From Chiloscyllium plagiosum (lineage: Eukaryota): a stretch of 64,000 nt of DNA. Shown here piece after piece: positions 1,409 through 63,519 of this stretch. The stretch lies in assembly GCF_004010195.1 (NCBI RefSeq), contig NC_057749.1, positions 8,001,901-8,065,900 of the forward strand, in the 5' to 3' direction. The notes beneath the pieces were generated by a model. That model did no database searches, was not told the DNA's origin, and saw only the letters and a list, made by a program, of their open reading frames with translations. Numbering within the stretch: position 1 is the first letter of the stretch; every line of letters starts with the position of its first letter. Made by a program: the position numbers and the translations under genes.

Positions 1409-1447
1409 TAGATGTTTCGTCACCATACTAGGTGACATCATCAGTGA
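1409..1447 (-). ncRNA. Minimal hammerhead ribozyme motif (PLE family D)
   Basis: Minus strand: CUGAUGA-u-GUCACC-uaguau-GGUGAC-GAAAC-AUC. Confidence 0.7.
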
Positions 1448-1529
1448 ACCTCTGGCTGAAGCGTTGGTCGCATGGCCCGCTTTCTATTTATGTGTTTAGG
1501 TTTCCTTGGGTTGGTGATGTAATTTCCTG

Positions 1530-1738
1530 ATGGAAATGTGTTGCTGGAGAAGCGCAGCAGGTCAGGCAGCATCTAGGGAACAGGAGAATCGACGTTTCGG
1601 GCATTAGCCCAAAGAAGGGCTAATGCCCGAAACGTCGATTCTCCTGTTCCCTAGATGCTGCCTGACCTGCTGCGCTTCTCCAGCAACACATTTCCATCTC
1701 TGATCTCCAGCATCTTCAGACCTCATTTTCTCTTCAAA
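1530..1738 (+). mobile_element. PLE family A terminal element arranged as a perfect fold-back
   Basis: 82-bp perfect inverted repeat (1529-1610 / 1617-1698); 14-bp TSD gatgtaatttcctg at 1516-1529 and 1739-1752. Confidence 0.85.
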
Positions 1739-2583
1739 GATGTAATTTCCTGGTCATTTCTTGTTTTTTTTCTCTCAGGGAGTGGTAAATAGGGTCCAAG
1801 TCAATGTGTTTGTTGATCGAGTTCCGGTTAGAATGTCATGCTTCCAGGAATTCTCGTGCGTGTCTCTGTTTGGCTTGTCCTAGGATGGATGTGTTGTCCC
1901 AGTCGAAGTGGTCAAATTCCTCATCCTATATAAGGATACTAGTGGGGGTGGATCATGTCTTTTTGTGGCTAGTTGATATGAGCAGAACCTCTGACACTCC
2001 TGTTTATATCTGTCAGCCAGGGCTCCCTGATTGTACCAGATTAATAGCCCAATCAGGGAACTCATACTATGAGGTCCAGCTGGCTGACCTTGTTCCAATC
2101 ACGATAAATGAAATAGGTTCTACTGATGAGAGATGTACTTACAGAGGATGGTACTTTGTACAATCGTCTATAATATAGTTTGCAGAAACCTACCAGAGTC
2201 TGATAGCAGTCAGTATTAGGTAAGGGGGACAGAATTACAGGTCACTACCATAAAGAAGCGCAGTGTGATATTGACCCTGCTTCTGAGATAGGAGGTCTGG
2301 GATGAAGTCCATAGGTGTGTAGTAACATCTCTGAGTAGGTATAGTCACCATCTTTACATTTCATAGAAAAGAGCTCCAAGCCACAAGTCTTGTAGCACCG
2401 CAAACCACTTTTCCATTTTGAAGTTCAGTCTAACATGTTGTTTCCAGCTCCAATCATTACCCAACATCATGACGTTCAATGCTTTCACTAGAAAGTGAAG
2501 TTGAAGCCACTGTTACATCCCTTGCATGAAAACCTTCAAACACATGCGCTAACATTCAAGCCCAACAACACCGAATGAATTTG

Positions 2584-2890
2584 GGGTGGCTCACTGGCTC
2601 AGTGGTTAACATTGCTGCTTCACAGCACCAGGGACCTGAGTTCAATTCCATCCTCAGGTGACTGTCTCTGTGGAGTATGCACATTCTCCCCATGTCAAGT
2701 GTGGATTTCCTTCCAAAGATGTGCAGGTCAAGTGGATTAGCCATACTAAATTGCCCATAGTACCCAGGAATGTGCAGGGTATGTGGGTGAGCCATGGGAA
2801 TGCGAGCTTACAAAAGTAGGGGGTGGAATGCTCTTCAGAGGGTTGGTGTGGACTCGACGGGCCAAATGGCCTGCTTCCACACTGCAGGAA
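2584..2890 (+). mobile_element. HE1-type V-SINE
   Basis: tRNA-like head tggctcagtggttaac...gagttcaattcc, central tggagtatgcacattctcccc, LINE-like tail. Confidence 0.85.
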
Positions 2891-3296
2891 TTCAATGTAT
2901 TGAAAGGGAATGGGCATCTAAACTTATTGAAAAGCACATATAAATGGCTAGGGATAATATATATCGATAATGTCTCTGTATCCGAGATTACATCTTTTGA
3001 GCTGAACTTTTGCAATTGGCCATCGTGATTATCTTCCCTGTAACCTCCCAAAAGAATAATACTATTCCATTACCTTACTTGATTTTATCCTACAGGCTGT
3101 TTTGCACACCATTTTTCCAACACATTATTGGCAAAAGCCTGGAGTCTGGATGGATGACCTGCTTCCAGCCTTCTGTCAGGCTAAGCATGAGGCAGCTGTT
3201 AAGAAAGTGTGATAGCACTCCAGGGTGACTCAGTAATTTGTATTCAATCCCTACCAATTACAGTATTGATTCTTTTAATAAAAACATGGAATGCTG

Positions 3297-3810
3297 GGGG
3301 AGACAGCGGCCGAGTCATATTATTGCTAGGCACCCAGGTAATGTTCCGGGGACCTGGGTTCAAATCCCCCTATGGCAGGTGGTGGAAATTGAATTCAAGC
3401 AAAAACCTGAAATGAAGAGCCTAATGATGATCATAAAATCATTGTTGATTGGTTGAATGCCTTTTATGAAAGGAAATTGCCATCCTTACCTGGTCTGGCC
3501 TACATATGAGTCCAGACCTATAACTCTGTGGTTGACTCTTAAACAGAAGTTGCTGGTGAAGCTCAGCAGGTCTGTCAGTGTCTGTGAAGGGAAATCAGTG
3601 TTGACATTTTGGTTCCAGTGATCCTTCCTCAGAACTGATGGTAGCTGGGAAAGTGTCAGTTTTTATGCAGAAGATAGGGCAGTGGGGAGGGTGTAAGGAG
3701 CAAACAATAGGTGGGGATAGAACCCAAAGAGAAAGATTCTTAATTCCTCTCTGGGCAATTAGGGATGGCCATGTTAGCAACACCTTCCTCCATGAATGAA
3801 TTTTTAAAAA
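3297..3810 (+). mobile_element. tRNA-derived SINE with L2-like tail, split by a PLE family B end (about 3541-3735, minus)
   Basis: gggttcaaatccc B-box; tail gggcaattagggatgg...atgaatgaa; direct repeat ga(c/t)tcttaa flanks the insert. Confidence 0.7.
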
Positions 3811-4044
3811 ACTAATCTTGTCATTCTGTAGGCGGGTTTGAATGGAACATGTTACCACTTTGATGTTCCCTCCCTAAAATCACAATGATATCCAGAGCAC
3901 TTTGGAGCTTAAAATCTGTCAGCCTGGTAAAGTAGTAGGGCTACTTTCTCACTAAACAATGGAAACAACATGTTACAGACTGACCCGAACAATCCCGCCA
4001 ACCAGTGGATCCATTCAAAGTTCTCCTGGTCAGCCACATTCAGT

Positions 4045-4540
4045 TATAGGGTCATAGAGTAATACAGCACTGAAACAGACCCTTCGGTCCAACCAGTCCA
4101 TGCTGACCAAGTTTCCCAAACTAACTAGTCCCATCTGCCAGCACTTGGCCACTATCCCTCCAAACATTTCTTATCCATGTACTTTTCCAAATGTCTTTTA
4201 AATGTTATAACTGTACCCACATCCACCACTTCCTCTGGAAGTTCATTCCATACATGAACCACTTGCCGTTTAAAAAACGTTGCCCCTCATGTCTTTTTTT
4301 AAAGCTTTCTCCTCTCACTTAAACATATTTTCAATGTGTCTGTCCTAATGTCTTTTAAATGTTGTAACGGTACCTGCACCTACCACATCCTCTGGCAGTT
4401 CATTCCACTATCCTCTGCATGAAAATGTTGCACTTCAGGTCCCTTTTAAATCTTTCTCCTCTCATCTTAAAAATATGTCCCCTCTGTTCACTTTATTACT
4501 GTCCCTTATTGTTTTGTAAACTGCTATAAAGTCACCCCTG
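4045..4540 (-). mobile_element. HER1/CR1 LINE 3' fragment with a diverged internal duplication
   Basis: Tail gtcatagagtaatacagcac; the aaatgtcttttaaatgtt...gttcattcca block occurs twice. Confidence 0.8.
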
Positions 4541-4754
4541 AACCAGCTGTCAATGGTGGTAGAAAACTCAGCAAATAACAGGTGAAAGAGGCTCCACAAA
4601 CATCCTCAAAGGTGGCTTTAAGTGTATATCTTGATGAATTTTTCATCATTAGAAGAGTTTTAATTCTAGCTACGGTGGACTTTCCCTATGCAAACATGAA
4701 CAAATGCTCGAAAACGTGTACATAATACTCTTGCAGTCAAACATTTGAAATAAC

Positions 4755-5030
4755 CTTTTATTTACATCAAAAATATACTTTATTCTTCAAAAACACTTTC
4801 TATACGTGCACAGTCACTAAAGTGGTTCAGATCTGTACGGTCTTTGCATATGGAGAAACAGACAGACATTGGAGTCTGATTTTCCTGACAGTTCCAACAA
4901 ACAAACCCAAGACATTTCTTACTCATACAAGATACTACTTACATATATTTGAGGTACTGTGAGGGTCAAATGACTGAACAGACCACCCTTTGACTTTGGC
5001 CGAAAGACCTTAGATGATGGTCGTGGCAGC
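4755..5030 (-). mobile_element. Probable L1/Tx1-type LINE 3' end
   Basis: Minus strand ends in aataaagtatatttttgatgtaaataaaa (polyA signal plus A-rich end); family assignment is by resemblance only. Confidence 0.4.
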
Positions 5031-5048
5031 AAGCTTTAGTGTATCCCT

Positions 5049-5345
5049 GGGCGGCAAAGTGGCTCAGTGGTTAGCACTGCTGCCTCACAGCACCAGGGTC
5101 CCAGGTTCGATTCCAGCCTCGGGTGACTGTCTGTGGAGTTTGTACATTCTCCCTGGGCCTGCCTGGGATCCCTCCGGTTTCCTCCCACAGTCATGAAGAT
5201 GTGCTGGTCAGGTGAATTGGCCATGCTAAATTGCCTGTAGGTGCATTAGTCAGAGGGGAATAGGTCTGGGTGGGTTACTCTTTGGAGGGTCGGTGTGGAT
5301 GGGTTGGGCCGAAGGGCCTGTTTCCACACTGTAGGGAATCTAATC
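5049..5345 (+). mobile_element. HE1-type V-SINE
   Basis: Full head, core and tail ending gtttccacactgtagggaatctaatc. Confidence 0.9.
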
Positions 5346-5354
5346 AAAACATAG

Positions 5355-6332
5355 TCCTGCACCTACAATGTAGTCCATTGTAGGTTGGATCATCAGACAA
5401 TGATGAGGCAGGGTACAGGAAAGAGATTGAGTGTTTAGTAGCATGCTGTAAAGGCAATAATATCTCCATCAATGTCAGCAAAATGGAAGGAGCTGGTTAT
5501 TGACTTCAGGAAGCAGACTGAAGGACATGTATCAATGTATCAAGTTCCCAGCAGTAATTATCGCCATCATTTTGATGCTACAGTCAAGAAAGCACAACAA
5601 CGTCTCTATTTCCTCAGTAAGCGAAGGAAATTCCGCATATCCACAAAGATTCTTACCAATTTTTGTAGATGTGCCAATGGAAGCATCCTGTCCACATGCA
5701 CCATAGTGTGGTATGGTAACTGCTGTTCCCAAGACCATAAAAAACCACATAGAGTTGTGAACATGGCTCAGTCCATCATAAAAAACAGCCTTCCTTCCAC
5801 TGAAACCATCTACACTTTTCACTGCCTCGGGAAAGCAACCAACATCAACAAAGACCCCGGAAAAGCATAGCCAATCAGGCAGCATCCGAGGAGAAGGGAA
5901 GTCAAGGTTTCGAGCATAAGCGTGGACTCTCCTGCTCTCAGATGCTGCCTGATCAGCTGTGCTTTTCCAGCGCCACACTTTTTTACTCTGACCTCCTGCA
6001 TCTGCAGTCCTCACTTTCACATAATCAAAGACCCTTCCTGCCCTGGTTAAACTCTCTTCCACCATCTTCCATTGGGCAGAAGATATTAAAGTTTGAATTC
6101 ACATACAAACAGATTCAAGAGCAGCTTCTTCCCTGCTGTTATCAGACTTCAGAACGGACCTCTGAAATGTTAATGTTGATCTGTCTTTCTGTACCTTCTC
6201 TGTGGCTATAACACTGTATTCTGCACTCTGTTCTGCTACTCTGATACACTTTGTGTGGTGTGATATGCCTGTAAAACACACAAAATAACACTTTTCACTG
6301 TATCTTGATATATGTGACAACAATAAATCAAA
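5355..6332 (+). mobile_element. Rex1/Babar LINE 3' part, interrupted by a PLE family A fold-back (5858-6018)
   Basis: KKAQQRLYFLSK..KF...LTNFCRC...WYGNC; tail atgtgacaacaataaatcaaa; 16-bp TSD (14/16 identical) at 5842-5857 and 6019-6034. Confidence 0.85.
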
Positions 6333-6559
6333 CCTTGGAATGTGTGAGTCTGTAACATTCAGTTGAGGTCAACTCCTTGTACTAAAGAGTAACAAGAAGC
6401 AACCACAACAGCATAAACATGGAGATCAGAGCTGGGGTCCAGAGGTGAGTAAGAGTGACTGCCCTTGACATTAAAGCAGCTTTTAACTAAGTATGACACC
6501 ATGAAATCCCCCAGAAAAACTGAAATCATTGAGAATTGGAGGTGAGGGGGACATTTCCT

Positions 6560-8345
6560 GTTTGCTGGAGTTATATTTAACACACTCGGAGCTGGTTATG
6601 TTCACTGGAAGTTAATCCTCTCAGTTCCAGGACACTGTTCAGTGGTTCCTCAGGATAGTGTCTTAAGCCCAAAGGTCTTCATTAATGATCTTCCCTCTAT
6701 CATAAAGTCAGAAGTGTGGTTTTCTGCTGATCATTACATTGTGTTCAATCCCAATTGCAATTCCTCACTTCCTCAAGCAGTCTGTGCATGTTAGGATCAA
6801 CATTGCATCTTGGGCTAACAAATGGCAAGTAACATTCCAAGTCCAAGATTGTCTTTAACGAAGCAAGTTAAACCACCTCCCCTTGACATTTAATATCATG
6901 ACTATCATCAAGTCTCCATCTATTATCAACGTCTTGGGAATTAACATTGACCAGAATCCTAACTGGGCCAACCACATAAAGACAATGAATGCTGTGTGAC
7001 ATGAACAGATCAGAGATTGAGAACTCAGCAGCAATTGAGTAACCTTCACATTCCAAAAGGCACACTCCTCATCTAAAAGATAAGATTTACTTGTCTGAAT
7101 GAGTATGACTTCAACATAGAGTCATAGAGATGTACAGCACGGAAACAGGCCCTTCGGTCCAACCCATCCCTGCTGACCAGATATCCCAACCCAATCTAGT
7201 CCCACCTGCCAGCACTTGGTCCATATCTCTCCAAACCCTTCCTATTCATATACCCATCCAAAAGCCTTTTAAATGTTGCAATTGTACTAGCCTCCACCAC
7301 TTCCTCTGACAGCTCATTCCATATACGCACCACCTTCTGCGTGAAAAAGTTGTCCCTTAGGTCTCTTCTATATCTTTCTCCTCTCACCCTAAACCTATGC
7401 CCTCTAGTTCTGAACTCCTTCACCCCAGGGAAAAGACTTTGTCTATTTACCCTATCCATGCCCCTCATAATTTTGTAAACTTCTATAAGGTCAGCCCTCA
7501 GCCTCTGACGCTCCAGGGAAAACAGCCCCAGCCTATTCAACCTCTCCCTATAGCTCAAATCCTCCAACCCTGGCAGCATCCTTGTAAATCTTTTCTAAAC
7601 CCTTTCAAGTTTCGCTACATCTTTCCGATAGGAAGAAAACCAGAATTGCATGCCATATTCCAACAGTGGCCTAACCAATGTCCTGTACAGCAACATGACC
7701 TCCCAACTCCTGTACTCAATACTCTGACTGATAAAGGAAAGCATACCAAACGTCTTCTTCACTATCCTATCTACCTGCGACTCCATTTCAAGGAGCTATG
7801 AACCTGCACTCCAAGGTCTCTTTGTTCAGCAACACTCCCTAGGACCTTACCATTAAGTGTATAATCTCCTAACAAGCTTGACATCTTCCAGGAGAAAGCA
7901 TCTTGCTTGATTGGTAGCTCATCCACCATCTTCAATGTTCACTCTCTCCACCTCCAGTGGCATCAGGGTATAACATCTAGAAGATGCATTAGAATAATTT
8001 GCCAACATTCTTTCCAACAGCTTTTTTCCAAATTCACAGTAAACAAGGGCAGCAGATACATGGGAATGCCACCACTTACCACATGCTATCCTGGCCTGGA
8101 ACTTTATAGCCATTCCTATTCTGTGGCTGGGTCAAGATCTCACAGCTGGCTCCCTCACAGCACTATGGGTGTACCAATGGTATGATCTGCCTGTACCTCA
8201 CGCAGAGCAAAACTTTTCACTGCACTTGGGTACGTATGACAATAATAAATCAAATCAAGTCAAATCAAACTTTCTTAAAGGTGATTAGGGAAGGACAATA
8301 AATGCTGACCTCGCCCAATGTTGCCCACATTTTGTGAATGAATTA
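6560..8345 (+). mobile_element. Old L2-type LINE 3' region, split by a CR1 copy and a Rex tail
   Basis: Degenerate RT C-terminal sequence (gttcctcaggatagtgtcttaagccc...gctgatcat); L2-type tail aataaatgctg...gaatgaatt. Confidence 0.6.
7115..7862 (-). mobile_element. HER1/CR1 LINE 3' fragment
   Basis: ORFs LYRTLVRPLLEY...KLERV and MLPGLEDLSYRERLNRLGLFSLE...NFFTQKVVRIWNEL; (tctatgac)n tail. Confidence 0.92.
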
Positions 8346-9369
8346 AAATACAGGAAACTCAAGAATAAGCAAGTCACGGTTTTATAATTAATGTAAAGAA
8401 GGATTACTGTAAAATACAGGAGATGCTTTGCTTAATCCACTGACATTAGGAATAAGATATTTTACTACCATATTTGCTTAACTGGTATTTTTAATATGGA
8501 TGTCAGTCTGGTTATTTAAATGTTTTAAACAAAGCAAAAAAAAGTTGAGATTTAATATTGAAGAATGTGGAATTGTAGAAATGAATTACAAATTGGGATA
8601 AAAATATTTGCAATCTCCTTCTTCCTTTTCATTTTCAGGTAATGAAAACGTGATTATTTCTGGAATAAAAAATGTGACCCATATCATACAACTCAATATA
8701 GGAGCAAATAGCCTTTATGTGTTATTTTAATTAGAATCAAGTTCGCCTTTAGAAATTACATCTGTACGGCTCATTCTTATTCAAGATTAACCCAACAACC
8801 AGAAAATTAGTTTAGCTTGGCCTCCCTCAAAAATGCACAGCGTGACAACATTGAGAAAATGGTAATCTTGAAAGACCATCCCTTAAACCGACATTTGGTT
8901 TCTGTCTTTCCATAATTTAAAGCTTTTTTTTAAAGAGGCAATTATACAAACAAGACCACAGTGTCGATTGTCATCAAATATTTCCAGCATATGGGGCTGT
9001 CATTGCCTTCCTACTGAGGGTTCTCACCATGATAATTAGCAAAGGTTAGGACCCAGAGCCCATTTTAACAGGCTGACTGACATGCAATTATTTTAGCTTC
9101 AGAGCAGTAAAACAGATAGCACTTACAGTTTGTAACTGATGAAATGCGAGGATAGTTCATGTAGGTGGAATGGAGCGATAAGGCACAGCCAGCCTTTGTA
9201 AAGTTCTCTGGGCTGCTGTCCTTCTTATGAATGAGTTTGAGTTCGGGAGACTCGGTGAAAGATCATCTAATTGTATCATTTAGTGTCCTTCAGAGATACA
9301 TCAAATCTGGAGTCACAGGTAGACTTAGAGGATTCTGCTGCACATTTTGGAAGATTGAAGGAGTCTTTT

Positions 9370-12855: not shown

Positions 12856-12890
12856 TAATGCCATGGCTAATCCACCTAACCTGCATATCC

Positions 12891-15565: not shown

Positions 15566-16954
15566 TTTCTCTGGACTGAGGGAGGAAGCTCTGTGTAGAC
15601 ACAAGGAGAACATGCAAACTCCACACAGGCAGTCACCCGAGGATGGGTTGGAACTCCAATCCCTGGTGTTGTGAAGCAGCAGTGCTGACCACTGAGCCAT
15701 TGTGCCACCCTAAGTAGCGTAAGTTGTCAATAGTGTCCTGGTCAATACTGATCCCTCAATCAACATTGCAAAAAATCACAGTATCTGGTCATAATCATAT
15801 TATTGTTAGTGGGACTTTGTTGAGGACATGTTGATATCTGCATTTCCAACATTACAGCTGTGTTTACACTTGAAAAAATTGCTCATTGACTGGTGGGAGC
15901 TTTGAAATGCACTCACAGAATGCAAATCTTTAATTCTTGCTTTGTGCCACTCGGGTGAAAAATGTGCTGTGAGCCTGGATAAAGCTGGAATTCCATCTTT
16001 CAGACCAAGGGCTGCTTTCTTGTGCATTTCCTTACATCGCCGGGCTGCTTAACAAACAAACTGTGCAGTCCTCGTGGTTCTGGGTTAATCAGCTCTGCAA
16101 ACCTTGTGATCAATCCATGATGAGAAATTAATCCCTCGGAGCTATTCTGTTATGGATATATCCATTCCATTTTGAAGAAAAAGTTTGGAATAAAATGCTC
16201 AATTTGAAAATGAATCTTAATGATCAGAAACTTCACGTTTATTGATTCCTGGTCCTAATTCACTGTTCATGCCTTTTGTGTGCTACTGGCTGATTTTCTT
16301 CTGGTGGTGAGCTTGCGGCAAATGTACCCAATCTTTTAACGACCTTGAGAGAGCTTATGGAATTGGTACCTCAGTGATGTGGCAGTCTGTTCAGCAACAG
16401 AGGCTCATAAAAAGAATATTAGACAATTATTCTGCTCAGAAGGAGGACTTTCAACCTCACTGTGTCCTTTCAGAGAGAGCTTTCCAACTGATCCCTCTCC
16501 ACAGCTCCTTCACTTGAACCGATATTTTCCTTCTTAATTAATTTTGCTCATTTCCTTCTGAAACTTTCCAACTGAATCTGCTTCAATTCTCAGGCAGTCC
16601 TCTCCTGTAAAATGTGAGCGGTTCTTGTGGTGCATTGGTAGTGTCCTTACCTCAGTGTTAAAGTCCTACCTGCTCCAGAGGCATGTATTCCTGTACAGGA
16701 CAATTAGGAACTATCTAAATGTGTGGGGATAGGGTGGTCATCTCACTGATCCCAAAGCCCAGATTCATGCCTCACCTCTCTGCTGCTCAAAGCGCCCACA
16801 GCAGCAGATATTCAGCTAATAAATCTGGAATGTAAACCTAATTTCAATCATGGTGACCACGACAACAATTATTATCTTTAAAAGCTATCAGATTTACTTC
16901 AGGGAAAGGAACTCTGTCATTCTTCCACAAGTCTGTAGATTTAAGACTGTGATA

Positions 16955-17599: not shown

Positions 17600-18030
17600 C
17601 ACCTTCTGGACTCAAGATTGAGTTTGACAACTTTAGGGCTTGAACCTCTCCCGTGTCCTTACCCCAACTCCCACACATCAGGCCTTGTTATCACATGGTC
17701 TGCTATTCCACACAATTGTTAGCCATTAACAGTCCCCACTAACATCTACTCACCCTCCTAGCCAGATTGTTATCTACTCTTTTGTCTGTCCAATTGTTCT
17801 TCTCTCTCTTTGGGTTCTATCCCCATCTCTCATTTACTCCTTAACCCCTCCCCCACACCCTATCTTCTGTATATAAACGGACATTTTCCCAGCTACTATC
17901 ATTTCTGAAGAAGGGTCACTGGGCCAGAAATGTTAACTCTGATTTCTCTCCACAGATGCTGCCAGACCTGCTGAGCTTTTCTAGCAATGTATGTTTTTGT
18001 TTCTGGTTTCCAGTATTCGCTGTTGATTTG
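17600..18030 (+). mobile_element. Penelope-like element 3' end (family B) with a degenerate hammerhead at 17901-17938
   Basis: PSGLKIEFDNFR resembles a PLE ORF C-terminus; CUGAAGA-a-GGGUC-acu-GGGCCA-GAAA-U-GUU-aacu. Confidence 0.7.
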
Positions 18031-20699: not shown

Positions 20700-20818
20700 G
20701 ATGTGATTTCTGATGATTTGGAGGTGCCAGTGTTGGACTGGGGTGGACAAAGTTAGAAATCAACACCAGGTTATCGTCCAACAGGTTTACTTGGAAGCAC
20801 TAGCTTTCGGAGCGCTGA
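20700..20818 (-). mobile_element. PLE family C terminal fragment with a partial hammerhead
   Basis: Minus strand gcgctccGAAAGCTAgtgcttccaagtaaacctgttgg, same family as 63430 and 60721. Confidence 0.7.
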
Positions 20819-20854: not shown

Positions 20855-22480
20855 AGATAGTGTTCGAACGTCACTGGACAAGCAGTCTAGAGGCTGAATC
20901 AAGAGAAGTGCTGGAATCCCAACAACAGCAGCTAGTGGAATTCAGATTCAATTAATAAATTCTAGAATTAAAATTCCATCTCAGCGATAGCAACTGTGAA
21001 ACTATCATCAATTGTCATTGAAAATGCCTAAAGCAAAACAAAGAATTGCAGATGCTGGAAATCTAAAACAAAAACAGTAATTGCTGGAGAAACTCAGCAG
21101 GTCTGGGAGCATTGGTGGAGTGAGTAAAACACAGTTAACGTTTTGGAATCAGGTGATCCAGCAGAGCTTAATTTGAATAAATGCGAGATACTGCATTTTG
21201 GTAAAACAAACAAGATCAGGACTTATACAATTAAAAGTAGGGCCCTGGGTAGTGTTGTAAGAAAGCATTTGGGGGCATGCTTGCTTTCATTCTTCAGACT
21301 TCTGAGTATAAGGAGTTATGCTGAGGTTGTACAGAACATTGGTGAGGCCTTTCCTGGAGTACTGTGTCCAGCTCTGGTCTTCCTGTTATAGGAAGGATAT
21401 TATTAGAGTCAATAAAGTCTGCCGCTGGAAAATCACAGCAGGCCAGGCAGCATCCAAGGAGCAGGAGATGCAACATTTCGAGCAGAACCTTGCATCACTA
21501 TCTCCTGGAAGGACATTATTAATCTAGAAAGGGTTCCGAAGGGGTTTACCAGGATGTTGCTGGGAATAGAGGGTTTGAGTTCTAAGGAGATGGTGGATAG
21601 GCTGGGACTTTTTACACTGGAGGGTAGGAGGTTGAGGGGTGACCTTATAGAAGTTTATAAAATCACAAGGGGTACAGATAAGGTGAATGGCAGGTGTCTT
21701 TTCCCTAAGGTGGGGAATTTCAAGGCTAGAGGGCATATTTTTAAGGGGGGTGACCTTATTGAGGTTTATAAAGTCACAAGGGGTACAGATAAGGTGAATG
21801 GCAGGTGTCTTTTCCCTAAGGTGGGGGATTTCAAGGCTAGGGGCATATTTTTAAGGTGAGAGGAGAAAGATTTATAAAAGACATGAGAGGCAATTTTTTT
21901 ACACAGAGAGTGGTTCATGTGTAGGAATAGATTAGGATAGAATAGGCAGGTACAGTTACAACATGTAAAAGATATTTTGATAAGTACGGGAATAAGAAAT
22001 GTTTGGATGGATATGGACCAGCGCAGACACTTTAGTTTGGGATTACAGTCGGCATGGACTGGTTGGGCCAAAGGGTCTGTTTCTGTGCTGTGTGTCTCTA
22101 TGACCCTTCTTCAGACTACTGAAACCAAAAGTTTAACCCAGCTTTCTCTCCATAGATATTGCCAGAGGTACTGAATTTCTCCAGCAATTTCTGTTTTGTG
22201 TTGGTGGAAACCCACCTGATTCAACGAACAAAAAGAACAATACAGCGTGGGAACAGGCCCTTCGGCCTGTCAAGCCTGCACTGCCACATTTTGCTCTTCC
22301 ATATCATCAACATCTTTTACGGAGGGAGACTGCCATCCTTACCTGATCTGGTCTACATGTGACTCACAGCAATGTGGTTGACTCTCGACTGCCCTTTGAA
22401 ATGCCCCACCAAGTTCAGGGGCGATTAGGGATAGGCAACAAGCTAGCATGATGAGCACAGCCCATGAAAACAAATTAAAC
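20855..22480 (+). mobile_element. tRNA/L2-tail SINE split by a nested PLE family B fold-back, a CR1 and a PLE family A end
   Basis: SINE 5' part 20855-21030 and 3' part 22320-22480; family B arms at about 21030-21160 and 22100-22200. Confidence 0.6.
21165..22103 (+). mobile_element. HER1/CR1 LINE 3' fragment with a 111-bp tandem duplication and a PLE family A insert (21406-21506)
   Basis: LNLNKCEILHFGK; LYRTLVRPFLEYCVQLW; 15-bp TSD ggaagga(t/c)attatta at 21391-21405 and 21507-21521. Confidence 0.9.
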
Positions 22481-23464: not shown

Positions 23465-23595
23465 TGAGTGTTGAGAAGATTTGTAACTCAGGTTGAGATT
23501 CTGGATGTAGGTTTGCTCACTGAGCTGGAAGGTTCTTTGTCAGACGTTTCATCACCATACTGGGTAACATCTCCAGTGAGCCTCCGGACAAAGCT
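23465..23595 (-). mobile_element. PLE family D terminal repeat with hammerhead motif
   Basis: Minus strand uca-CUGGAGA-u-GUUACC-caguau-GGUGAU-GAAAC-GUC-uga; homologous to 1371-1460. Confidence 0.75.
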
Positions 23596-23624
23596 TGGTC
23601 AAGAGATCTAGATACAGACAGGGG

Positions 23625-24084: not shown

Positions 24085-24740
24085 GCCTGCACTTGAGACT
24101 TACATAATCTAGACTTAAATTTCATAGCAGTACTGAGGGGCAGTTATACTATCAGAGGTACCATTCCTCAGATGAAACGTTAAACGAGATCCCATCTATT
24201 CTCTCAGGCATAAAAGGTCCCAAAGGCACAATTTGAACAATAATGGTGGAACTTTCCTGGAGTCCTGGTCAATGTTTGTCTGGCACCCAACACTTAAAAC
24301 AGATGACCAAATACAGAAATTGCTGGAGAAACTCAGCAGGTCTGATAGCATCTGTCGAGAGAGAAACAGAGGTAATGTTTTGAATGGAGAAGAGTTCATG
24401 TTAGATTCAAAACATTAACTCTGTTTCTCTTTCAAGAATAATCATACCAGACCCAAAATGTTAACTCTGTTTCTGTCTCTGCAGATGTTGCCAGACCTCT
24501 ATGTCCTCTCCAGCATTCTCTATGTCTGTTTCAGATTTCCAGTACTCACCATGTTTTGCTGTTACTTACAGTAGATGATCTGGTCATGATCACACTGTTG
24601 TTTACGGGAGCTTGCTGTGCATGAATTGGCTGCCACAGTTTCCCCACTACAATAGCGACCCACCCTTTAGAAGTACCATACTGACTCTAAAATGATTTAG
24701 GATATCATGAGGTTGTGAATCTTATTCTACAATTGCAAGT
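24085..24740 (+). mobile_element. Deu-domain SINE with an inserted PLE family B fold-back (about 24307-24570)
   Basis: gcagtactgaggg...gatgaaacgttaaacgag...; gggagcttgctgtgcatgaattggctgcc. Confidence 0.7.
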
Positions 24741-26470: not shown

Positions 26471-28397
26471 ATGGAAAACATTCCTTTAGAATGATACCTA
26501 TCAGAGACCTTCACATTCATTTGAAGAATTTGTTCCTGAAGAAGAGTTTTGCAAGACTCTTCAATTTGAAGGATAGCTCCATCAACATAATTATTCGCCC
26601 AAGTTTCTTTTATGTAGAAACGTTGTGAAAATTGGCAATTTTCACACAGAGATCTGAAGCATTTGATAATGGATCCTTGTGCTCTGTTAACTGCTTTTCT
26701 CTCTCACACCAGAGGCTGCCAGACTTGCTGAGTTTCTCCATCACTCTCTGAGTATGTTTCAGTTTCCCAGCGTCATGGTATTTTGCTTTTACATCTTTGA
26801 CCAACCTGTTCAGAGATGTTATGCAACACCTCTGCAGCAGATGGCACCTGAACCTGGAGCTCCTGCCTTCGAGGCAGGGATGCAACCACAGTCCCACAAG
26901 ACTCTAGAAAGTAGAAAGTAAGTTGTGGAAAATAGGGCTGATCTTCCTTTTCATCCCTCTGAAGATAGGTGCATATGGTATATTAAGGAAAGATAAAATC
27001 TCATTCCACTTATTGACTGATTATGAGGGATAGAGTTGGGTCTTGCTACAGAATACCAAAGAACAGGTTTGGTCTCTCAAGATGTGGGAATGAAGGATAT
27101 CCTGCATTGTACTTTAATCCCTTTGAGGGAGTCAGTGTAGTTGGAACTTTCCCTAAGGAGGTGAAATACTTTGAGAGGAGCCCTCAACAAAATAGCTCCC
27201 ACCTATGGTATGTAGCAACTGTGAGTTTAAAACAACTCATAGCATTCTCTTACTTTGCTTTTTAATAATCCCACAAAAAGAGGAAATGTTAGAAACAGCT
27301 AGCCCAGGACATTGTACCGTATTTGTGAAAAACATCACAACTTGAGGGAACAAACATTTAAAGTCTTACATTTATGTAGTGCCTTTCACCAGTTTAGGAT
27401 GCCCCAGAGTGCTTTGCAAACATTGACAATACTTCCGATCCTCCAAAGAAAGTTCCAGAACCAAATTCTGAAGCGAGAATCTAGGTCAGGCCACAAAGGA
27501 GCTGTTGTCAGACGTTTTGGCTCTCTGTGTGAAAATTACCAACATTCACAACACCGCTACATGCAAGAAAATTGGGCACATAATTATTTTGATGGAGCTG
27601 TCCTTCAAATTGAAGGATAGTGATGCTGTTTATGCCATGCATTAATGTAATCAAATGCAGTAGGAATACTCAGAGGAAGGTCTTCAAATAAATGTCTATT
27701 TTATTCCTTCTTAAAGAACTGTATTGGTAGGAGTTTGTCAGCAATCCCCCCAAGGCAATTAGTGATCATTCTTTGCAGCAGGAAGCTCAGTAGAAATAGC
27801 GATGTAAACAGTATAAATTAACGCACAAGGTTCTGTACAATTCTAACTCGAGGCCTTAATTCCTCTCTCCTCTTCGTCCATGCCAATTGATGTTCCAGTA
27901 GCTGCTACCACCCAGAGTAATTGAGGCAAGTAGCTTGGGTGAAGCTCAGAGGAGGCTAGATATACACATGAAGGAGAAAGGAATAAAAATACATGTTAGT
28001 AGAGTCAGTGTTGAGGGATTAATATCCTGAAGACCTGGACCGATGATCCAGAAACAGATGGGTTCAAATCCCATCATCGCAGTTGCAAAATATAAATTCA
28101 ATTCGCCATTCAAATTCAGAGAATGTGAAAAGTATTAGTATAAATAATGGCAGAATCTTATTGGACTAACGAGGATCTCAGCTATGACTTGGAGAGCCAG
28201 CAAGGCACGTATGCTGTTAATTTTCAAGTGGTCCCACCAAACCACAAGACAATCAGGCAATGACAAGGCCACTGGCTGGTCTTTCTTTGGAATCTAGGCC
28301 CCAGAGGCAGAGGGTTCACCAACAGAGAAGATCATAAGTTCAAGTCCCACTCAAAACCAAGCCAGTTTAGTACAGTTCACATCAGTAGTGACCAAGT

Positions 28398-38659: not shown

Positions 38660-38790
38660 ATTAGGAGAAAGTGAGGACTGCAGATGCTGGAGATCAGAGC
38701 TGAAAATGTGTTGCTGGAAAAGCGCAGCAGGTCAGGCAGCATCCAAGGAGCAGGAGAATCGATGTTTCGGGCATGAGCCCTTCTTCAGGA
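38660..38790 (-). mobile_element. PLE family A end with near-intact hammerhead (38761-38788)
   Basis: Minus strand CUGAAGA-a-GGGC-ucau-GCCC-GAAAC-AUC. Confidence 0.8.
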
Positions 38791-38829
38791 ACATTTCCAG
38801 CAGCCCTCAAGGAGCTCAATATCATTGCG

Positions 38830-40246: not shown

Positions 40247-40249
40247 CAT

Positions 40250-41734: not shown

Positions 41735-42240
41735 GCCTTTTATTTATTCATTCATTCACGGGATGTTGGTGTCACTGGCTAGACCAGCATTTCTTGCCCA
41801 TCCCTAATTGCCCAGAGGGTAGTTAGGAGTCAGCCACATTGCTGTGGGTTTGGAGCCATGTGTAAGCCAGACCAGGTAAGGATGGCAGTTTCCTTCCCTA
41901 AAGGACATTAGTGAACAAGATGAGCTTTTCTGTCAAAATAAAAATCGAACAAACTGCGGACGAAGGAAACCATGAACAAAAATTGCTGAAAAGCTCAGCA
42001 GGTCTGGCAGCATCTGTGCAGAGAAATCAGAGTTAACATTTTGGGTTGAGTGACTTCTTCAGAAGAAACATTTTTCTGACAATTGATAGTGTTTGTGGTC
42101 TTTGTTAGACACGTAATTCCAGATTTTTATTAAATTCAAATTCCACTATCTGCCGTGATAAGATTCTAATTCAGGTCCCTGGGTCGTTGCCTGGGTCTCT
42201 GGATTAACAGTCCCGTGATAAAACCGCTAGGCTGTCACCT
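41735..42240 (-). mobile_element. tRNA/L2-tail SINE with a PLE family B insert (about 41937-42070)
   Basis: Tail tttattcattcattcac; ttttctg(t/a)caa direct repeat flanks the insert. Confidence 0.7.
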
Positions 42241-47063: not shown

Positions 47064-47738
47064 TGAAAGTACTCCACAGAGGTTGAGATCCCATTACCAA
47101 GCCACCCTTTACTGACACAGGGTGAGTCCTTGACACTGATCCAGCTCCCTCAGAGCCAGCTCTCAGAGCAAACAAGATGTCTGACACAACTGTTCCTTTT
47201 TTTACAAAATGAAATGCAATTACTGGGAGCCAGAGTAAGAATCATCACTAACAGAATAGACACAACTGTTCTTTTTTAAATTTTATTAAACAGAACAAAT
47301 TACAAACAAGCAGTTAACAATGAACAGCAATTTAAAGGGGAAATGGGCAGCAAAGCCAGACCCCTAAACCCCACCACACTAACAGTTCTCAGGGAAAAGA
47401 GGATGTTCCTTAAATCCTGGACACAGCAGTTCTTATCTGTCAGGTAGGAGAAAGTGAGGACTGCAGATGTTGGAGATCAGAGTCGAGAGTCTGGTGCTGG
47501 AAAAGCATCGCAGGTCAGGCAGCATCTGAGGAGCAAGAAAATCAATGCTTCGGGCATAAGCCCTTCATCATCCTGCTCCTTGGATGCTGCCTGACCTGCT
47601 GTGCTTTTTCAGCATCGCATTCTCAATTCTGTTCTTATCTGTAAGCCAGGGCTCCCCGATTGGTCCCAATTAACAACCTCAATCACAAAACTCAGATCCT
47701 ATGAGGTCCACCTGGCTGACTTCATGACAATTACCACA
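47064..47738 (-). mobile_element. Short solo-LTR-like repeat carrying three insertions, including a PLE family A fold-back (47441-47630)
   Basis: 12-bp TSD gttcttatctgt at 47429-47440 and 47631-47642. Confidence 0.7.
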
Positions 47739-49084
47739 GATTATGTTTGGTCTTATGTCAGCAAGCAATGAATTACTTTAACACTCCAGGCAGTTCTGGA
47801 GTGGACAAGGTGGAGATCATAAGTTGCCACAAGGGCTAAAAGAAAATGCTTATAAAGATGTGTAAAAAGGCATAGATTGGCACAGAGGGAATGGGGCAAT
47901 GATGGGTTGGTTGGGGGATGGATGCTTAATGTAGCATGGATGATACATGGGGAGCTTGTATATGGGGCTTTTGAGGGAATTTAGGGGCTCGAAGACTGTT
48001 TTTTTGTCCTTTTGTTGTAAAACATTGACACAGCATTGAAGCACATCTTATAGAATTTTTCTAGTATTTTCTGTGTAGCTTGAGACCTCATGTAAGTGCT
48101 GCTACAGCACTCCTGACTGCAACTGTCTCTTCATTCTCTAGAATCAGCAACCCAAGCTCAATTTTCATGGGTTGTGCACTTGTATTTTGTCTAATTAACT
48201 AATGTAACATATCTAAGCATCTTGACAAATTTGCAAAAACTATCTGAAAACTCCCTATGAATAGATGACTGCCTTAATTGGGTAATAGCAGTCACAAATT
48301 TCCAACCTTGTTCATCAAATCTATTGCTCGCCTCACACCAACATTGGCAGCACCGTGACCACGAGAACTAGGAGTGGGCAGGAAATTCAGGCTTGCCATT
48401 GCCAACATCACTAAAGGAATGTGCTACAATCAGGTTGTGTCATTAAGAAATACCATAAATATTGGAGTAATAGTTGATCTCACTTAAAGGTCGACCTCCT
48501 ATTTTTGGTCAAATAATCTGGAATTCTCCATGTATCTCATGTAAAAGTCATCCCTAGTTCTTCACAGATAACAGCTCAACGGTTATGAGTTTTCCAATCT
48601 GGCAGTTGTTCAGCTCCACTCCTGGTCTCCCAGACCACTGGCTGTTGCATTCCGGTCTGGGTTTTCAGAGTTATAATAATTCTTTTCTTCCTCTTTATTT
48701 GTTTATAATGATACAATATGAATCTTGATGGGCATGAATTTCAGCCCTTCAGAAATAGTATCCATGTCATAGTCAACCCCATAAATTTAACCTTAAAAAG
48801 TAGTCAAAAGCATTCAACTATTAGTCAAGTATATACGGTATTAACAAGTTGAGGGTTGGTTAGCTCAGTTGGCTGGATGACTGGTCCCTGATATAGAGTG
48901 ATGCCAGCAGCATTGATTCAGTTCCTGCAGCAGCTGATGCTACCATGAAGGATATCCCCTTGCCTGCCATGTGGTGACCCTCATGTTTAACCATCACTGG
49001 TCATCCCTTGTTAATGAGAGAGTAGGATTATGGTGAGACAGGCCAACACTCTGCACTACATGACGATAGTGATTTGCACTTCTA

Positions 49085-49262
49085 AAGGCAGAAATTGCTG
49101 GAAAAACACTGGCACAATCTGTAAAGAGAAACCAGTGTTAACATTTCGGAACCCTTTGAAGAAGGGTCACTCAATTCGAAACATTAAGCGTTTTCTCTCC
49201 ATTAACACTGCAAGACCTGCTGAGATTTTCCAGCAATTTCTGATTTCCAGCAATTGCAGTTT
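49085..49262 (+). mobile_element. PLE family B fold-back
   Basis: cagaaattgctggaaaa...ttttccagcaatttctg inverted arms; tgaagaagggtcac...cgaaacatt. Confidence 0.65.
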
Positions 49263-50397: not shown

Positions 50398-50631
50398 CAG
50401 TGTCAGAGCAAATTACTGCAGATACTGGAACCTGTACTGAAAATAAAAACCGCTGGAGATCACAGCAGGTCAGGCAGCATCCAAGGAGAGAGAGCAAACT
50501 AACGTATCGAATCTAGTTGACTCTTCATCAGAGCTGAGGGATGAAGACTCATCTAGACTTGAAATGTTAGCTTGCTCTGTCTCCTAGGATGCTGCCTGAT
50601 CCACTGTGATCTCCAAAATTTTTTTTGTTTT
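50398..50631. mobile_element. PLE-like family E fold-back with two opposed hammerhead remnants
   Basis: 11-bp TSD caatcccagca at 50387-50397 and 50632-50642; minus strand gcu-CUGAUGA-a-GAGUC-aacua-GAUUC-GAUA-C-GUU-agu. Confidence 0.75.
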
Positions 50632-60129: not shown

Positions 60130-60475
60130 GCCGGATACCCTCCCCCCACCTTACCTCAGTCCCAACCCTCGGACTCAGCACTGCCTTCTTGACCTGCAAT
60201 CTTCTTCCCGACCTCTCCGCCCCCACCCCCTTTCCGGCCTATCACCCTCACCTTAACCTCCTTCCACCTATTGCATTCTCAACACCCCTCACCCAAGTCC
60301 TTCTTCCCTACCTTTTATCTTAGTCTGCTTGGCACACCTTCTTCATTGCTGAAGAAAGGCTTATGCCCGAAACGTCGATTCTCCTGCTCCTTGGATGCTG
60401 CCTGACCTGCTGCGCTTTTCCAGCAACACATATTTCAGCTCTGATCTCCAGAATCTGCAGTCCTCACTTTCTCCC
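60130..60475 (+). mobile_element. PLE family A 3' UTR and terminal repeat, hammerhead core at 60349-60376
   Basis: CUGAAGA-a-aGGC-uuau-GCCc-GAAAC-GUC, followed by the family A tail. Confidence 0.8.
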
Positions 60476-60720
60476 ATCCTTTTTTATCATGTCTTACCAC
60501 ATTCAGACTTGTCACACAGTCCCTTTTTTTCATCGTGTTAAATGTTATCTTGGGAATCAATTACAGCAATAATTGAAATAACTCCATAAAGATAGGTATC
60601 TTGTAACCAAGTCACCCTTTATTTGCACTAACTACACTTGTTCAGCTCCCTCAGAGCCAGGTCTCGGACACTCCTGTTTGTATGTCAGTCAGGGCTCCCT
60701 GATTGAACCAATCCTGATCA

Positions 60721-61309
60721 GTTAAAAATCACACAACAGCAGGTTATAGTCCAACAGGTTTATTTGGAAGTACCAATTTTTGGAGTGCTGCTCCTTCATC
60801 TTTTTTTTTGCAGGTTACAATTCATTAATATGTAAATCCCAGACTTTCTTTCAAGTCACATTCCAAGATAGCTTAAGGTTTTATAAAAAAAGGTAACATC
60901 TCAGCTCAGACAGTGCATTAAAGGTGTGAGATTAGAGTCTGTCTATCTTCCATACTTGAGTCAGACTGGTTCTATTTCCAAAGTAAGAATACATAAAATG
61001 TCACATGGACTGCCTGCCTGCAGATTGTGTGCTTTTTGAACAAAATAGAATGTATCTGCAAATGCAAATTCATGCCATAGACTTAGATGTGTGTGCGTGC
61101 ATGTGTACATGTATGTGTGAGGGAGAGAGTGTGTGACCATGGATGTGAGTGTGAGAGTGTGTAAATGTGCTTGATAGCGTGTGTGTGCGAGTGACTTGGA
61201 GGATATGCCTGTGAGAGGGTGTGTATGAGTGTGAGCATGTATATGGGCGTCTGAGTGAGCGTGTGTATGAGAGACAGTCTACGTGTGATCGTGTGTAAGA
61301 GTATGTGTT

Positions 61310-61345
<36 letters not shown>

Positions 61346-62777
61346 AGAGACTCTATAGTGTATTGGGCTCACTTGTAGTGTGACATGAATCCAGGAGCCC
61401 GTTTGAGGCCATCCTCATGAATACCGAACTTAACTACCAGCCTCTGCCCAGTGACTCTGCATTGTTGCGTATCCCAAAGTCCACCCTGGAGGATGGTCAC
61501 CTGAAGATCCGAGGCTGAATGTTCCTGACCGCTGAAATGTTCCTCGACTGGGAGGGAACCCCTGTCTGGTAATTGTTGCACAGTATCCATTCATCTGTTG
61601 TCATAGCGTCTGCATGGTCTTGCCAATGTACCATGCCTCGGGACATCCTTACTTGCAGCATATGAGATGGAACGTTGGCCATGTCACACGAGTACTTACT
61701 GCACATGTGTAATGGTGGCATCCATGTCAACATTCTGACAAATCTTGCAATGGTTGCCATGGCAGGATTGTCTGGTGTTGTTGTCAATGTTGTCCTGAAG
61801 GCTGGGCAGTTTGCTGTGAATAGTGGTCTGTTTAAGGTTAGGCGGTTGTTTAAAGGTGAGAAGTGGAGGTGTAGGGAAGGTCTTGGTGAGGTGCTCATCC
61901 TCATCGTTAATGTGTTGCAGGGTGCGAAGAACGTAGCGTTTCTCCACTCCCAAGAAGTACTGGAAAATGAAGGGTACCTTATCAGTTGCATCCCGTATCT
62001 GTCTCCTGAGGTCATTGTGCTTCCTCGTTGTGGCACGTCGGAACTAGCGATCTATGAGTTGAGCATCATATCCTATTCTTCTGAGGGCATCCATAAGTAT
62101 CTTCAGGTGTCTGTCATGTTTCTCCTCATCTGAAAAGATCCGATGCATGTATAGGGCTTGTCTGTGGGGAATGTCTGTTTTAATATGAGAAGTGTAGTGT
62201 TGTGAGTTTTGCGATAGAGTGAGGTGCTGAGGTGCCTGTCCTTGATGGAGATGCGTGTGTCCAAGAATGAGACTGATTTTAAAAAGCAGTCCATGGTAAG
62301 TCTGACAGTGGGATGAAACGTATTGATATCACTGTGTAGTTGTTTCAGTGACTCTCACCATGGCTCTAGAGGAAGAAAATGTCAGGGATGTATCTGTTGT
62401 ACAGTGTTGGTTGGAGGTCCTGTGCAGCAAAGAGGTTTTGTTCGAATTTGTGCAAAAAACGTTTGGCATATTCGGTTGCCAATGTGGTTATCATGGCTGT
62501 TCCAAGTGTCTGGATAAAGAACTGGTTGTCAAAATTGATGGTGCTCTGGTTGAGGATGAAGCTGATTAAGTTATAGGATGTTGCCTGGAGATTGGCAGTT
62601 GTTGGTATTGAGGACTGAGGCTGTTGAAGCGATGCCATCATCGTGTGGGATGCTGGTGTAGTGTCGAAACGTCCATTGTGACAAGAAATGTTCCTGGTTC
62701 ACTGGTCTGTGGGTGCTGAGTTTCTGTAAGAAATCTGTAGCGTCGCGACAGGAGCCAAGGGTCCTCTGTACAATGGG
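60721..62777 (-). mobile_element. Penelope-like retroelement (family C): RT plus GIY-YIG endonuclease, 5'-truncated and decayed
   Basis: FDNQFFIQTLGTAM; VSFLDTRISIKD..LSTSLYRK; FKQPPNLKQ; VEEHFSGQEHSASDLQVTILQGG; (TG)n/(GA)n 3' UTR; family C end at 60721-60800. Confidence 0.9.
61085..61350. repeat. Degenerate (TG)n plus (GA)n simple repeat within the PLE 3' UTR
   Basis: gtgtgtgtgtgtgagagagagagagag. Confidence 0.85.
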
Positions 62778-63429
62778 GAATCCTAATAGGGAACTCATAT
62801 TCTATGAGGAGCATCTGGCTGACCTCATTGCAATTACTACAACATTGTTCCTAATTTCTGAAGCAAGTTGACTATTCCAGGCACTTCAGTGAGTCTGAAT
62901 GTTGTACTTAGCCATTTACAAGTCTGCTTGTTTTATCTAAAACTGAGATTTTGGAAAGTCACAGTCAGCTGTTCAGTAAGGAGTTGAGTCACTGAAGGAT
63001 TGGAAATTCAATGCAATGACTGCCTCTTCTAATTGCTAGCAGTTACACATATTATCTCAGTTTTTCTTTCAGGGCAGATCGGAAAGGTTAGGATTGCACA
63101 GACATCTCAAAATATGTTACGGATAATTAAATATGTTTTAAGTCATATGGTAAATGCATGTATGGCTATTTCTGAAAGTCAGTTCTAAGAAAACTTGTAT
63201 TTATGTTTCTTTCTTTATTCTTCCTTGGACTGTATGACCAGGCCAGTGTTTGTTACCCATCCCTATTTGATTGCTGTCTTGCTGAGGCCATTTCAGAAGG
63301 CTCTTTCTGTAAAGTTTCAACCACATTGCTGTGGATCTGGAGTCACGTGTAGGCCAGGCCAGTTAAAGATGGCAGATTTCCTTCCTTAAAATTAGTCAAA
63401 TTTATTTTTTGTGACATGATTTTGTGACA

Positions 63430-63519
63430 ATCACCTGATGAAGGAGCGTCGCTCTGAAAGCTAGTGTGCTTCCAATTAAACCTGTTGGACTATAACCTGG
63501 TGTTGTGTGATTTTTAATT
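63430..63519 (+). mobile_element. ~90-bp PLE family C mini-insert
   Basis: Flanked by 10-bp direct repeat ttttgtgaca (63420-63429, 63520-63529), inside an L2-tail SINE. Confidence 0.75.
63432..63466 (+). ncRNA. Minimal type I hammerhead ribozyme, core intact
   Basis: cac-CUGAUGA-a-GGAGC-guc-GCUCU-GAAA-GC-UA-gug: stem I cac/gug, 5-bp stem II, palindromic AGCU stem III. Confidence 0.75.

Follow-up and report, generated by a model that had tools for sequence, protein, structure and literature searches.

The hammerhead motifs dispersed through 64 kb of the Chiloscyllium plagiosum genome (hereafter the window, meaning the whole stretch of DNA analysed) are very probably fossil 3' end-pieces, or pseudo-LTR fragments, left by three or more Penelope-like element (PLE) lineages: a Penelope/Poseidon-type lineage (family D), a Neptune-type lineage (family C) and a lineage comprising families A, B and E. 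They are genuine yet ordinary, and they extend to another host lineage the class of PLE ribozymes described in 2014.

All 15 sites listed in an earlier note on this DNA, which gave no strands (nine are on the minus strand and six on the plus strand), are true members of the five sequence groups in the window, and the full census is larger than that list, with 24 scored pieces and four smaller fragments at 20 loci. The motif is a minimal type-I hammerhead with a G10.1-C11.1 pair, a stem I of 2-4 bp and a palindromic ACGU or AGCU replacing helix III. A single extra unpaired nucleotide separates A9 from stem II in all 11 copies with a near-intact 5' box (A in families A, B, C and E, U in family D), and ten of these copies have G at 10.1. 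The consensus written previously omitted this base, and because all families carry it, the strict CUGANGA-stem-GAAA scan did not rise above chance, with two matches of at least 3 bp where shuffled sequence averaged 0.53; allowing a one-base insert gave three perfect-box matches with at least 4 contiguous bp against 0.12 (maximum of one in 25 shuffles). The palindrome at 15.1-16.1 reads ACGU in 6 of 21 pieces of families A, B, D and E, 13 further pieces carrying CpG-transition products of ACGU, and AGCU was found in two of three family C pieces.

Pairing exceeded chance in both stems of the 11 copies with a near-intact 5' box, with 2.18 of 3 positions paired in stem I versus 1.14 across families (permutation fraction 0.0001) and 3.18 of 4 in stem II positions 2-5 versus 1.86 (0.00095), in registers set by hand and with copies of one family being non-independent. 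The family alignments hold 2-11 decayed copies each, all from one window, and helix I covariation is family-specific, with few copies per family, being weakest in family A (2 bp). These observations uphold the proposal of PLE-type minimal hammerheads in which stem III is palindromic and the pairing covaries from family to family. The claim that stem II differs completely between families while pairing is kept was right about pairing but overstated the difference, as stem II of every family opens with G-C and families A, B and E can be aligned.

No Rfam hammerhead family was matched in the window at the gathering threshold, nor at E values up to 10, and weak Rfam matches to miRNA hairpins over back-to-back pairs were rejected with scores far below gathering. 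The hammerhead fold is not singled out by ViennaRNA, most copies being indistinguishable from shuffles (z-scores of 0.23 to -1.05 for five of six copies, with family D alone at -3.08); for the plus-strand copy at 63435, the active dimer was predicted at -12.5 kcal/mol and the best dimer at -28.9 kcal/mol, in an energy model that leaves out the core contacts. A pattern search returned no matches in viral contigs. Metagenome contigs show the same architecture, with H17, which was unselected in the query, in 91 of 97 distinct matches, stem I paired at 1.97 of 3 positions versus 0.99 when shuffled over 37 types, and one motif adjoining an RT/GIY-YIG ORF.

The PLE link made in the earlier note was borne out for families C and D by RT/GIY-YIG ORF remnants. 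A family D pseudo-LTR (1340..1530, minus strand; C3 at 1444, predicted cut after 1411) keeps all core bases, with the palindrome and stem I broken, and the decayed C-terminus of a Poseidon-type PLE ORF (1746..2005, minus strand) lies upstream of the hammerhead in the same sense. This ORF end has 15 homologues at 64-92% identity, shark proteins with RT and GIY-YIG matches, and the shark RT/GIY-YIG protein P0002 aligns through the hammerhead motif at both D sites, the other being 23496..23600 (minus strand; C3 at 23576), where A6 is lost and the palindrome and stem I are kept. Pfam matched no family on the 45-aa D remnant alone. The CX2-5CxxC linker is absent by eye in the homologues P0002 and P0007, and by this motif, rather than by a tree, family D would fall in the Penelope/Poseidon clade.

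Family C is represented by a 5'-truncated Neptune-type PLE (60720..62764, minus strand) with a decayed RT-thumb-zinc-finger-GIY-YIG ORF at about 62764-61372 and a 3' region holding a microsatellite and a damaged hammerhead (60802-60774), which lies about 570 nt downstream of the RT-CX4CxxC-GIY-YIG remnant. The C-x4-C-xx-C zinc finger between RT and EN is present in the window remnant and in its homologues. The GIY-YIG Pfam matches on the homologues that link families C and D to PLEs are weak (E of 1e-4 to 5e-3, under the curated cut-off). The CX2-5CxxC motif, again read in place of a tree, points to the Neptune clade, Nematis being also compatible. The other two pieces are a 3' half with its 5' box missing (20749..20817, minus strand) and a plus-strand piece at 63431..63517 (C3 at 63435, predicted cut after 63463), which lies in the opposite orientation to the Neptune element.

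Families A, B and E were presented earlier as distinct from each other, but they are mutually alignable at about 68% over 120-135 nt and so form one related lineage, which makes three lineages instead of five unrelated families. This lineage is probably Neptune-type, and we infer its link to an ORF. Its copies carry the PLE signatures of back-to-back insertion, an optional tail of about 40 nt and target duplications, and a few codons at the start of the longest family B piece (17600-17640) weakly resemble Neptune-type ORF ends. No RT/GIY-YIG ORF remnant was detected near any A, B or E piece by tblastn with 172 PLE proteins and seven locus ORFs, the pieces being too short for an ORF; this miss is weak, because the profile used derived mainly from the C lineage.

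Within this lineage, one insertion is a back-to-back family A pair (1530..1738, both strands) with 82-nt arms that are 100% complementary and a junction within the hammerhead; it was inserted into the D element between 14-bp target duplications (1516-1529 and 1739-1752), and residues 145-197 and 198-221 of P0001 align on either side of it. Another A pair, absent from the earlier list (5859..6018, both strands), sits in a LINE remnant with its junction in stem II/GAAA and 9-bp duplications at 5849 and 6026, and a third (47447..47635, both strands) has a damaged core and 12-bp duplications at 47429 and 47631. Single family A pieces lie at 21424..21497 (minus strand, decayed and previously unlisted), at 38664..38791 (minus strand; C3 at 38788), with core and stem II kept and the palindrome lost to a CpG transition, and at 60130..60475 (plus strand; C3 at 60349, predicted cut after 60376), the longest, with core bases and palindrome kept and G10.1 and stem I mismatched. 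Family B pieces were found at 3538..3736 (minus strand; C3 at 3632, G12 lost), at 41952..42064 (minus strand; a stem II deletion, G12 lost), and at 17600..18030 (plus strand; C3 at 17905, predicted cut after 17934), where the core bases are kept, 10.1-11.1 is mismatched and the palindrome has decayed. A back-to-back B pair at 49084..49260 (both strands) has its junction within the hammerhead and has lost C3. Among the unlisted copies, a B piece at 22101..22207 (both strands) has the 5' half of its hammerhead inverted relative to the 3' half, three decayed B pieces lie back-to-back at 24284..24547 (both strands), a B 3' flank stands alone at 26685..26770 (plus strand), and a decayed piece of the B/E lineage occupies 21047..21168 (minus strand). 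Family E consists of one back-to-back pair (50409..50629, both strands) with 90-nt arms at 80% and one core change in each arm, A14 being changed in one and C3-U4 missing from the other.

Overall, back-to-back pairs occur at 6 of the 20 loci, three of them with target duplications of 9-14 bp (three of seven tested); flanking duplications were not found at three of six further pairs, and the 7-mer at the E pair falls within chance expectation. The family A 3' ends fall into two classes relative to the cut site, at +95 to +98 in four of eight and at +45 to +71 in the other four, and each of the three A pairs combines one long and one short arm. The 5' edges lie inside the hammerhead in 19 of 26 cases and at the scissile bond in none.

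All 12 invariant core bases (C3-A9, G12-A15.1, U16.1 and H17) are intact in 5 of the 24 scored pieces, namely 1411, 17905, 38761, 60349 and 63435, which belong to families A, B, C and D and are the only 5 of the 15 originally listed sites to keep them. Core and stem III palindrome are both intact in two pieces, and only the plus-strand copy at 63435 retains all core bases, AGCU, the 3-bp stem I and the 5-bp stem II, with a G.U pair at its base (10.1-11.1). The very large ribozyme population that had been extrapolated is therefore overstated, given that 19 of the 24 pieces have lost core bases. Most copies are fossils that decayed mainly through CpG transitions, which account for 11 of 12 changes at 11.1-12 and for 13 of 15 changes at the CG of the palindrome. 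Decay thus tracks CpG mutability and not selection, and because methyl-CpG transitions strike C11.1-G12 and the ACGU palindrome, nearly all copies are now inactive.

Taken together with published work, these features suggest how the pieces may have arisen. Each parent PLE would carry the known minimal type-I hammerhead, and two motifs in the parent RNA would pair via ACGU or AGCU, building helix III for each other. By analogy, slow cleavage of the dimer would follow 3' of GUC, GUU or CUA, probably aided by the element's own protein. The RT/GIY-YIG protein would cut genomic DNA and prime reverse transcription at some 45-100 nt to the 3' side of the hammerhead, with a start at either of two points producing the optional tail. 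Synthesis would usually stop within the hammerhead or shortly beyond it, in many cases with two pieces left back-to-back in one target duplication, and the inserted copies would then decay neutrally, mostly by methyl-CpG transitions.

The window copies share with the minimal hammerheads of Cervera and De la Pena (2014; PMC4209133) the type I topology, the extra base between 9 and 10.1, G10.1-C11.1, the palindrome without helix III and the short helix I, as well as the occurrence of several families per genome, mostly as single truncated copies, and of opposite-strand pairs. They differ in helix II (4-6 bp versus 7-8 bp in Schistosoma) and in pair spacing (overlapping or within about 30 nt versus 100-700 nt), and their apparent density, extrapolated from one window, is above the 4,000-9,000 per genome of coelacanth and Xenopus; shark terms are absent from the text of that study and from two of its three supplements. 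The Poseidon element PAc of Anolis carolinensis (PMC11167929) likewise has a hammerhead in its pLTR and two end classes set apart by the tail, with 3' ends 85-92 nt downstream of the cut site by the published coordinates (82-98 nt in the long class of families A and B). PAc has demonstrated activity and a protein-assisted ribozyme, whereas the window copies are decayed and known from sequence alone. The Neptune and Penelope/Poseidon clades (Arkhipova et al., 2013, PMC3846280; Craig et al., 2021, PMC8557442) share with the window the order of RT and C-terminal GIY-YIG, the CX2-5CxxC linker, present in the C lineage and absent in D homologues, inverted 5'-truncated copies, the optional tail (30-40 nt) and target duplications, but the window contains no full-length element.

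It is improbable that A, B and E are instead separate non-autonomous mini-elements, retrozyme- or SINE-like, that start at the hammerhead and are mobilised in trans by PLE proteins. The missing ORF and the majority of pieces beginning at the 5' edge of the motif would fit such elements, and a preprint (10.64898/2026.07.22.740005) describes non-LTR retrozymes with PLE-derived type-I hammerheads in vertebrates, one chondrichthyan genome included, many of them monomeric. However, such retrozymes are defined by head-to-tail tandem units each with a hammerhead, and no such units were found at motif sites by Tandem Repeats Finder (four arrays in the window). Moreover, three pieces reach 104-305 nt upstream of C3, the 5' edges spread over about 35 nt without a common start, and families C and D, which have ORFs in the window, yield equally short pieces.

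The possibility that some copies serve the host by cutting intron-containing pre-mRNA, raised in the earlier note, found no support and seems very remote. The whole architecture at 63435 and the core and palindrome at 60349, both on the plus strand, could be read in its favour, but the 279 ORFs of at least 62 aa yielded no host exon (short exons would escape), Pfam on all of these stop-to-stop ORFs returning only RVT_1, ALKBH8_N (LINE ends), rve and one sub-threshold RPA43_OB. The window offers the copy at 63435 no second AGCU motif in the same sense to pair with, partners in back-to-back arrangement run antisense and would hide the motif inside a long hairpin, and the CpG-driven decay also argues against selection. 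Furthermore, published minimal hammerheads did not cleave as monomers and were weak as dimers (PMC4209133), and eight of nine Xenopus dimers tested failed to cleave. A structure merely resembling a hammerhead, such as a protein-binding or RT-pausing hairpin, is just as improbable. The absence of 5' edges at the scissile bond agrees with it, as do reports that hammerhead cleavage is dispensable for insertion in vitro and that no Anolis RNA ends at the site (PMC11167929). On the other hand, unrelated lineages have all retained the catalytic positions, H17 and stem I, and so have the metagenome matches, where these were no part of the query; the same study found that the Anolis Poseidon hammerhead, which needs the PLE protein for cleavage, was cleaved with it and that C3 and G8 mutations abolished activity.

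The identification of these motifs as PLE end-pieces is of value for repeat annotation, since such CpG-decayed fossils are missed by Rfam, and for little else. A further idea, which we consider unlikely, is that the hammerhead acts as an integration joint and not only as a processing ribozyme. Template RNAs would be dimerized via the palindrome, the PLE protein (predicted to be dimeric and to extend both strands) would copy the paired RNAs from both nicked target strands, and both cDNAs would halt in the uncleaved hammerhead and join there. This would account for the many 5' edges inside the motif with none at the scissile bond, and for tailed and untailed arms lying back-to-back in one target duplication. 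Shark genomes, which may hold 10^5 of these insertions, would allow the idea to be tested directly. Should 5' ends and inversion junctions prove to cluster in the hammerhead genome-wide, the finding would matter more, since thousands of junctions would form a natural record of this step and would bear on what the hammerhead does in PLE transposition.

The earlier note described at least five distinct families of minimal hammerhead ribozymes (A to E, told apart by stem II) in this window, and its observation was confirmed in part while its interpretation is supported in part. All 15 sites that it listed are true family members, nine of them on the minus strand. Its consensus did not hold as written, since the strict CUGANGA-stem-GAAA form occurs at two sites against 0.53 in 100 shuffles. 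Every family carries one unpaired base after A9, and a scan allowing this base gave three perfect-box sites with at least four contiguous pairs, against 0.12 in shuffled sequence (maximum 1 in 25 shuffles). Self-comparison of the window yielded 24 scorable pieces and four smaller fragments at 20 loci. All 12 invariant bases are retained in five of the 24 pieces (1444-, 17905+, 38788-, 60349+, and 63435+, named by C3 position and strand), two pieces keep these bases together with the palindrome, and only 63435+ has the full set of core, palindrome, stem I, and a stem II whose 10.1-11.1 pair is G.U. In the 11 copies whose 5' box is intact or altered at a single base, pairing within families occurred at 2.18 of three stem I positions against 1.14 between families (permutation fraction 0.0001) and at 3.18 of four positions (2-5) in stem II against 1.86 (permutation fraction 0.00095), using hand-set registers, counting G.U, and with copies that are not independent. 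Families A, B, and E are mutually alignable at ~68% over the motif and 3' flank, so that the five families reduce to three lineages (A/B/E, C, and D); family E is a single insertion. An Rfam search of the window returned no hammerhead at any threshold. Outside families A-E, the relaxed scan found an isolated CUGAAGA-A-stem-GAAG site at 26536-26570 (plus strand), which may be a chance match or a sixth family.

In family D, an ORF end at 2005-1746 lies upstream of motif 1444- in the same sense and matches 15 of 16 candidate proteins. The homologues contain RVT_1 plus weak GIY-YIG matches, and at each of the two D sites the alignment of one of them (P0002) continues across the hammerhead. No zinc-finger linker was seen in these homologues, an absence that, at the sequence level, points to Penelope/Poseidon as defined by this criterion in PMC8557442. 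Annotated shark gene models among the homologues (EYA3-like, MAP3K7, WBP2-like, and CUEDC2 isoforms, within P0001-P0014) end in the family D peptide, and these are exonised or mis-annotated ends of Penelope-like elements (PLEs). Family C has a decayed minus-strand ORF (~62764-61372) matched by shark and other proteins across RT, thumb, a C-x4-C-xx-C linker, and GIY-YIG, which makes it Neptune-type. A damaged C motif follows the stop of this ORF by ~570 nt, and 63435+ sits in inverted orientation ~670 nt outside the 5' end of the ORF.

No ORF match was obtained for A/B/E with 172 proteins and seven locus ORFs as queries; this lineage carries PLE signatures of the type described in PMC8557442 and PMC3846280 (inverted copies, tails, and target duplications). 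Back-to-back pairs occur at six of the 20 loci, and target duplications of 14, 12, and 9 bp flank the three A pairs, with no convincing duplication at four other sites tested. The pair at 1530-1738 splits the D element, whose homologue aligns on either side. The 3' ends of A pieces fall at +95 to +98 from the cut site (four of eight) or at +45 to +71 (four of eight), and each A pair joins one arm of the long class to one of the short class. The long class is close to the reverse transcription start of an Anolis element, which, by our arithmetic on the coordinates in PMC11167929 (cut at 26 nt and start at 111-118 nt after the start codon), follows the cut site of that element by 85-92 nt.

The 5' edges, taken as the best own-lineage alignment edge of 26 pieces, fall mostly within the hammerhead itself. 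Nineteen lie between C3-10 and H17, five reach 86 to >570 nt upstream, and one each lies at C3-25 and H17+6; divergence of stem II from the reference may account for the B edges at +19 to +26. Against a uniform null over 201 nt, a range that is arbitrary, 19 of 23 edges in 38 nt gives a binomial tail near 1e-10. None of the 26 edges lies at position 1.1, immediately after the cut, and the templates were therefore not cleavage products. Either reverse transcription stalled in an uncleaved hammerhead or short RNAs started there. That a hammerhead dimer served as the physical joint of PLE integration, both cDNAs stopping in the uncleaved hammerhead and being joined there, seems to us unlikely.

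As described in PMC4209133 and the review PMC6765202, minimal hammerheads have no helix III, and two of them associate by way of the palindrome; cleavage was absent in monomers and slight in dimers. An Anolis motif cleaved only with the element's protein, and insertion did not require cleavage (PMC11167929). By analogy, the parent elements here would have shown the same dimer or protein-assisted behavior. The window's own copies are fossils, with CpG decay at both the CG spanning 11.1-12 (intact in 12 of 24, with CpG transitions making up 11 of 12 changes) and the palindrome CG (intact in 6 of 21, with transitions making up 13 of 15 changes). No same-sense AGCU partner for 63435+ exists within the window, back-to-back partners being antisense, and folding energies argue neither for nor against predicted activity. 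The suggestion that intact copies could cut host pre-mRNA is unsupported, since no gene was identified and the decay looks neutral.

The window consists of vertebrate DNA rich in repeats and poor in CpG (GC 42%, CpG observed/expected 0.25), and annotated carpet-shark proteins (Stegostoma, Chiloscyllium, and Hemiscyllium) share 64-92% identity with its protein remnants, which marks the host as shark-like. None of its 279 ORFs of at least 62 aa matched a host-gene family in Pfam; the matches were to RT, the C-terminal ends of LINEs, and a single integrase piece. The rve (integrase core) remnant at 53729-53950 (minus strand), under the curated cut-off, probably derives from an old LTR retroelement. 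Many decayed LINE ends lie at 1-600, 5442-6200, and 13000-15240 (plus), and at numerous other sites, for example, 7200-7800 (minus), 19030-19290 (minus), and 21310-21860 (plus), the last including a 111-bp tandem duplication (21636-21856, 95% match). They comprise RT/ALKBH8_N-type pieces and a second type, which we take to be CR1-like, with matches at more than 12 places. An inverted repeat of 139 nt (88%) around a smaller one of 36 nt (15150-15616) belongs to no hammerhead family and is possibly a foldback or MITE-like element. A U5 snRNA match at 30320-30433 (plus; 42.2 bits against an Rfam gathering threshold of 40), with altered loop I and a weak 3' stem, is probably a pseudogene.

Five core-intact sites per 64 kb would extrapolate, from this one window, to ~2 x 10^5 per 3-Gb genome (PMC8455134 gives 2.96 Gb for the assembly of a relative), whereas PMC4209133 reports 4,000 and 9,000 in coelacanth and Xenopus; the criterion used here is looser. 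Shark terms do not occur in the two supplements of that paper that were searched, and a preprint (10.64898/2026.07.22.740005) includes one chondrichthyan genome with hammerhead retrozymes. Neither a shark-specific description of such hammerheads nor one of junctions at the hammerhead was found, in a search that had most subscription papers and repeat databases outside its scope.

Metagenome contigs contained at least 121 loci matching a pattern of two boxes plus GGG/CCC, from which H17 and stem I were left out. Among the matches listed, which are other animals' DNA, one had a short DNA match to the window families, H occupied position 17 in 91 of 97 distinct hits, and stem I pairing in 37 types reached 1.97 of three positions against 0.99 when shuffled (maximum 1.46 in 5000). 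An inverted copy lay within 150 nt upstream in 11 of 112 testable hits listed, and in one contig (L002) the motif follows an RT/GIY-YIG ORF and a second, inverted copy stands at the opposite end. Four non-shark contigs (L012, L016, L052, and L100) carry back-to-back hammerheads 25-42 nt apart, and junctions next to the motif are therefore not shark-specific. The motifs of the window belong to an already known class, the hammerheads of animal PLEs, and the shared H17, stem I pairing, RT/GIY-YIG ORF, and inverted copies indicate that this hammerhead architecture is general to animal PLEs.
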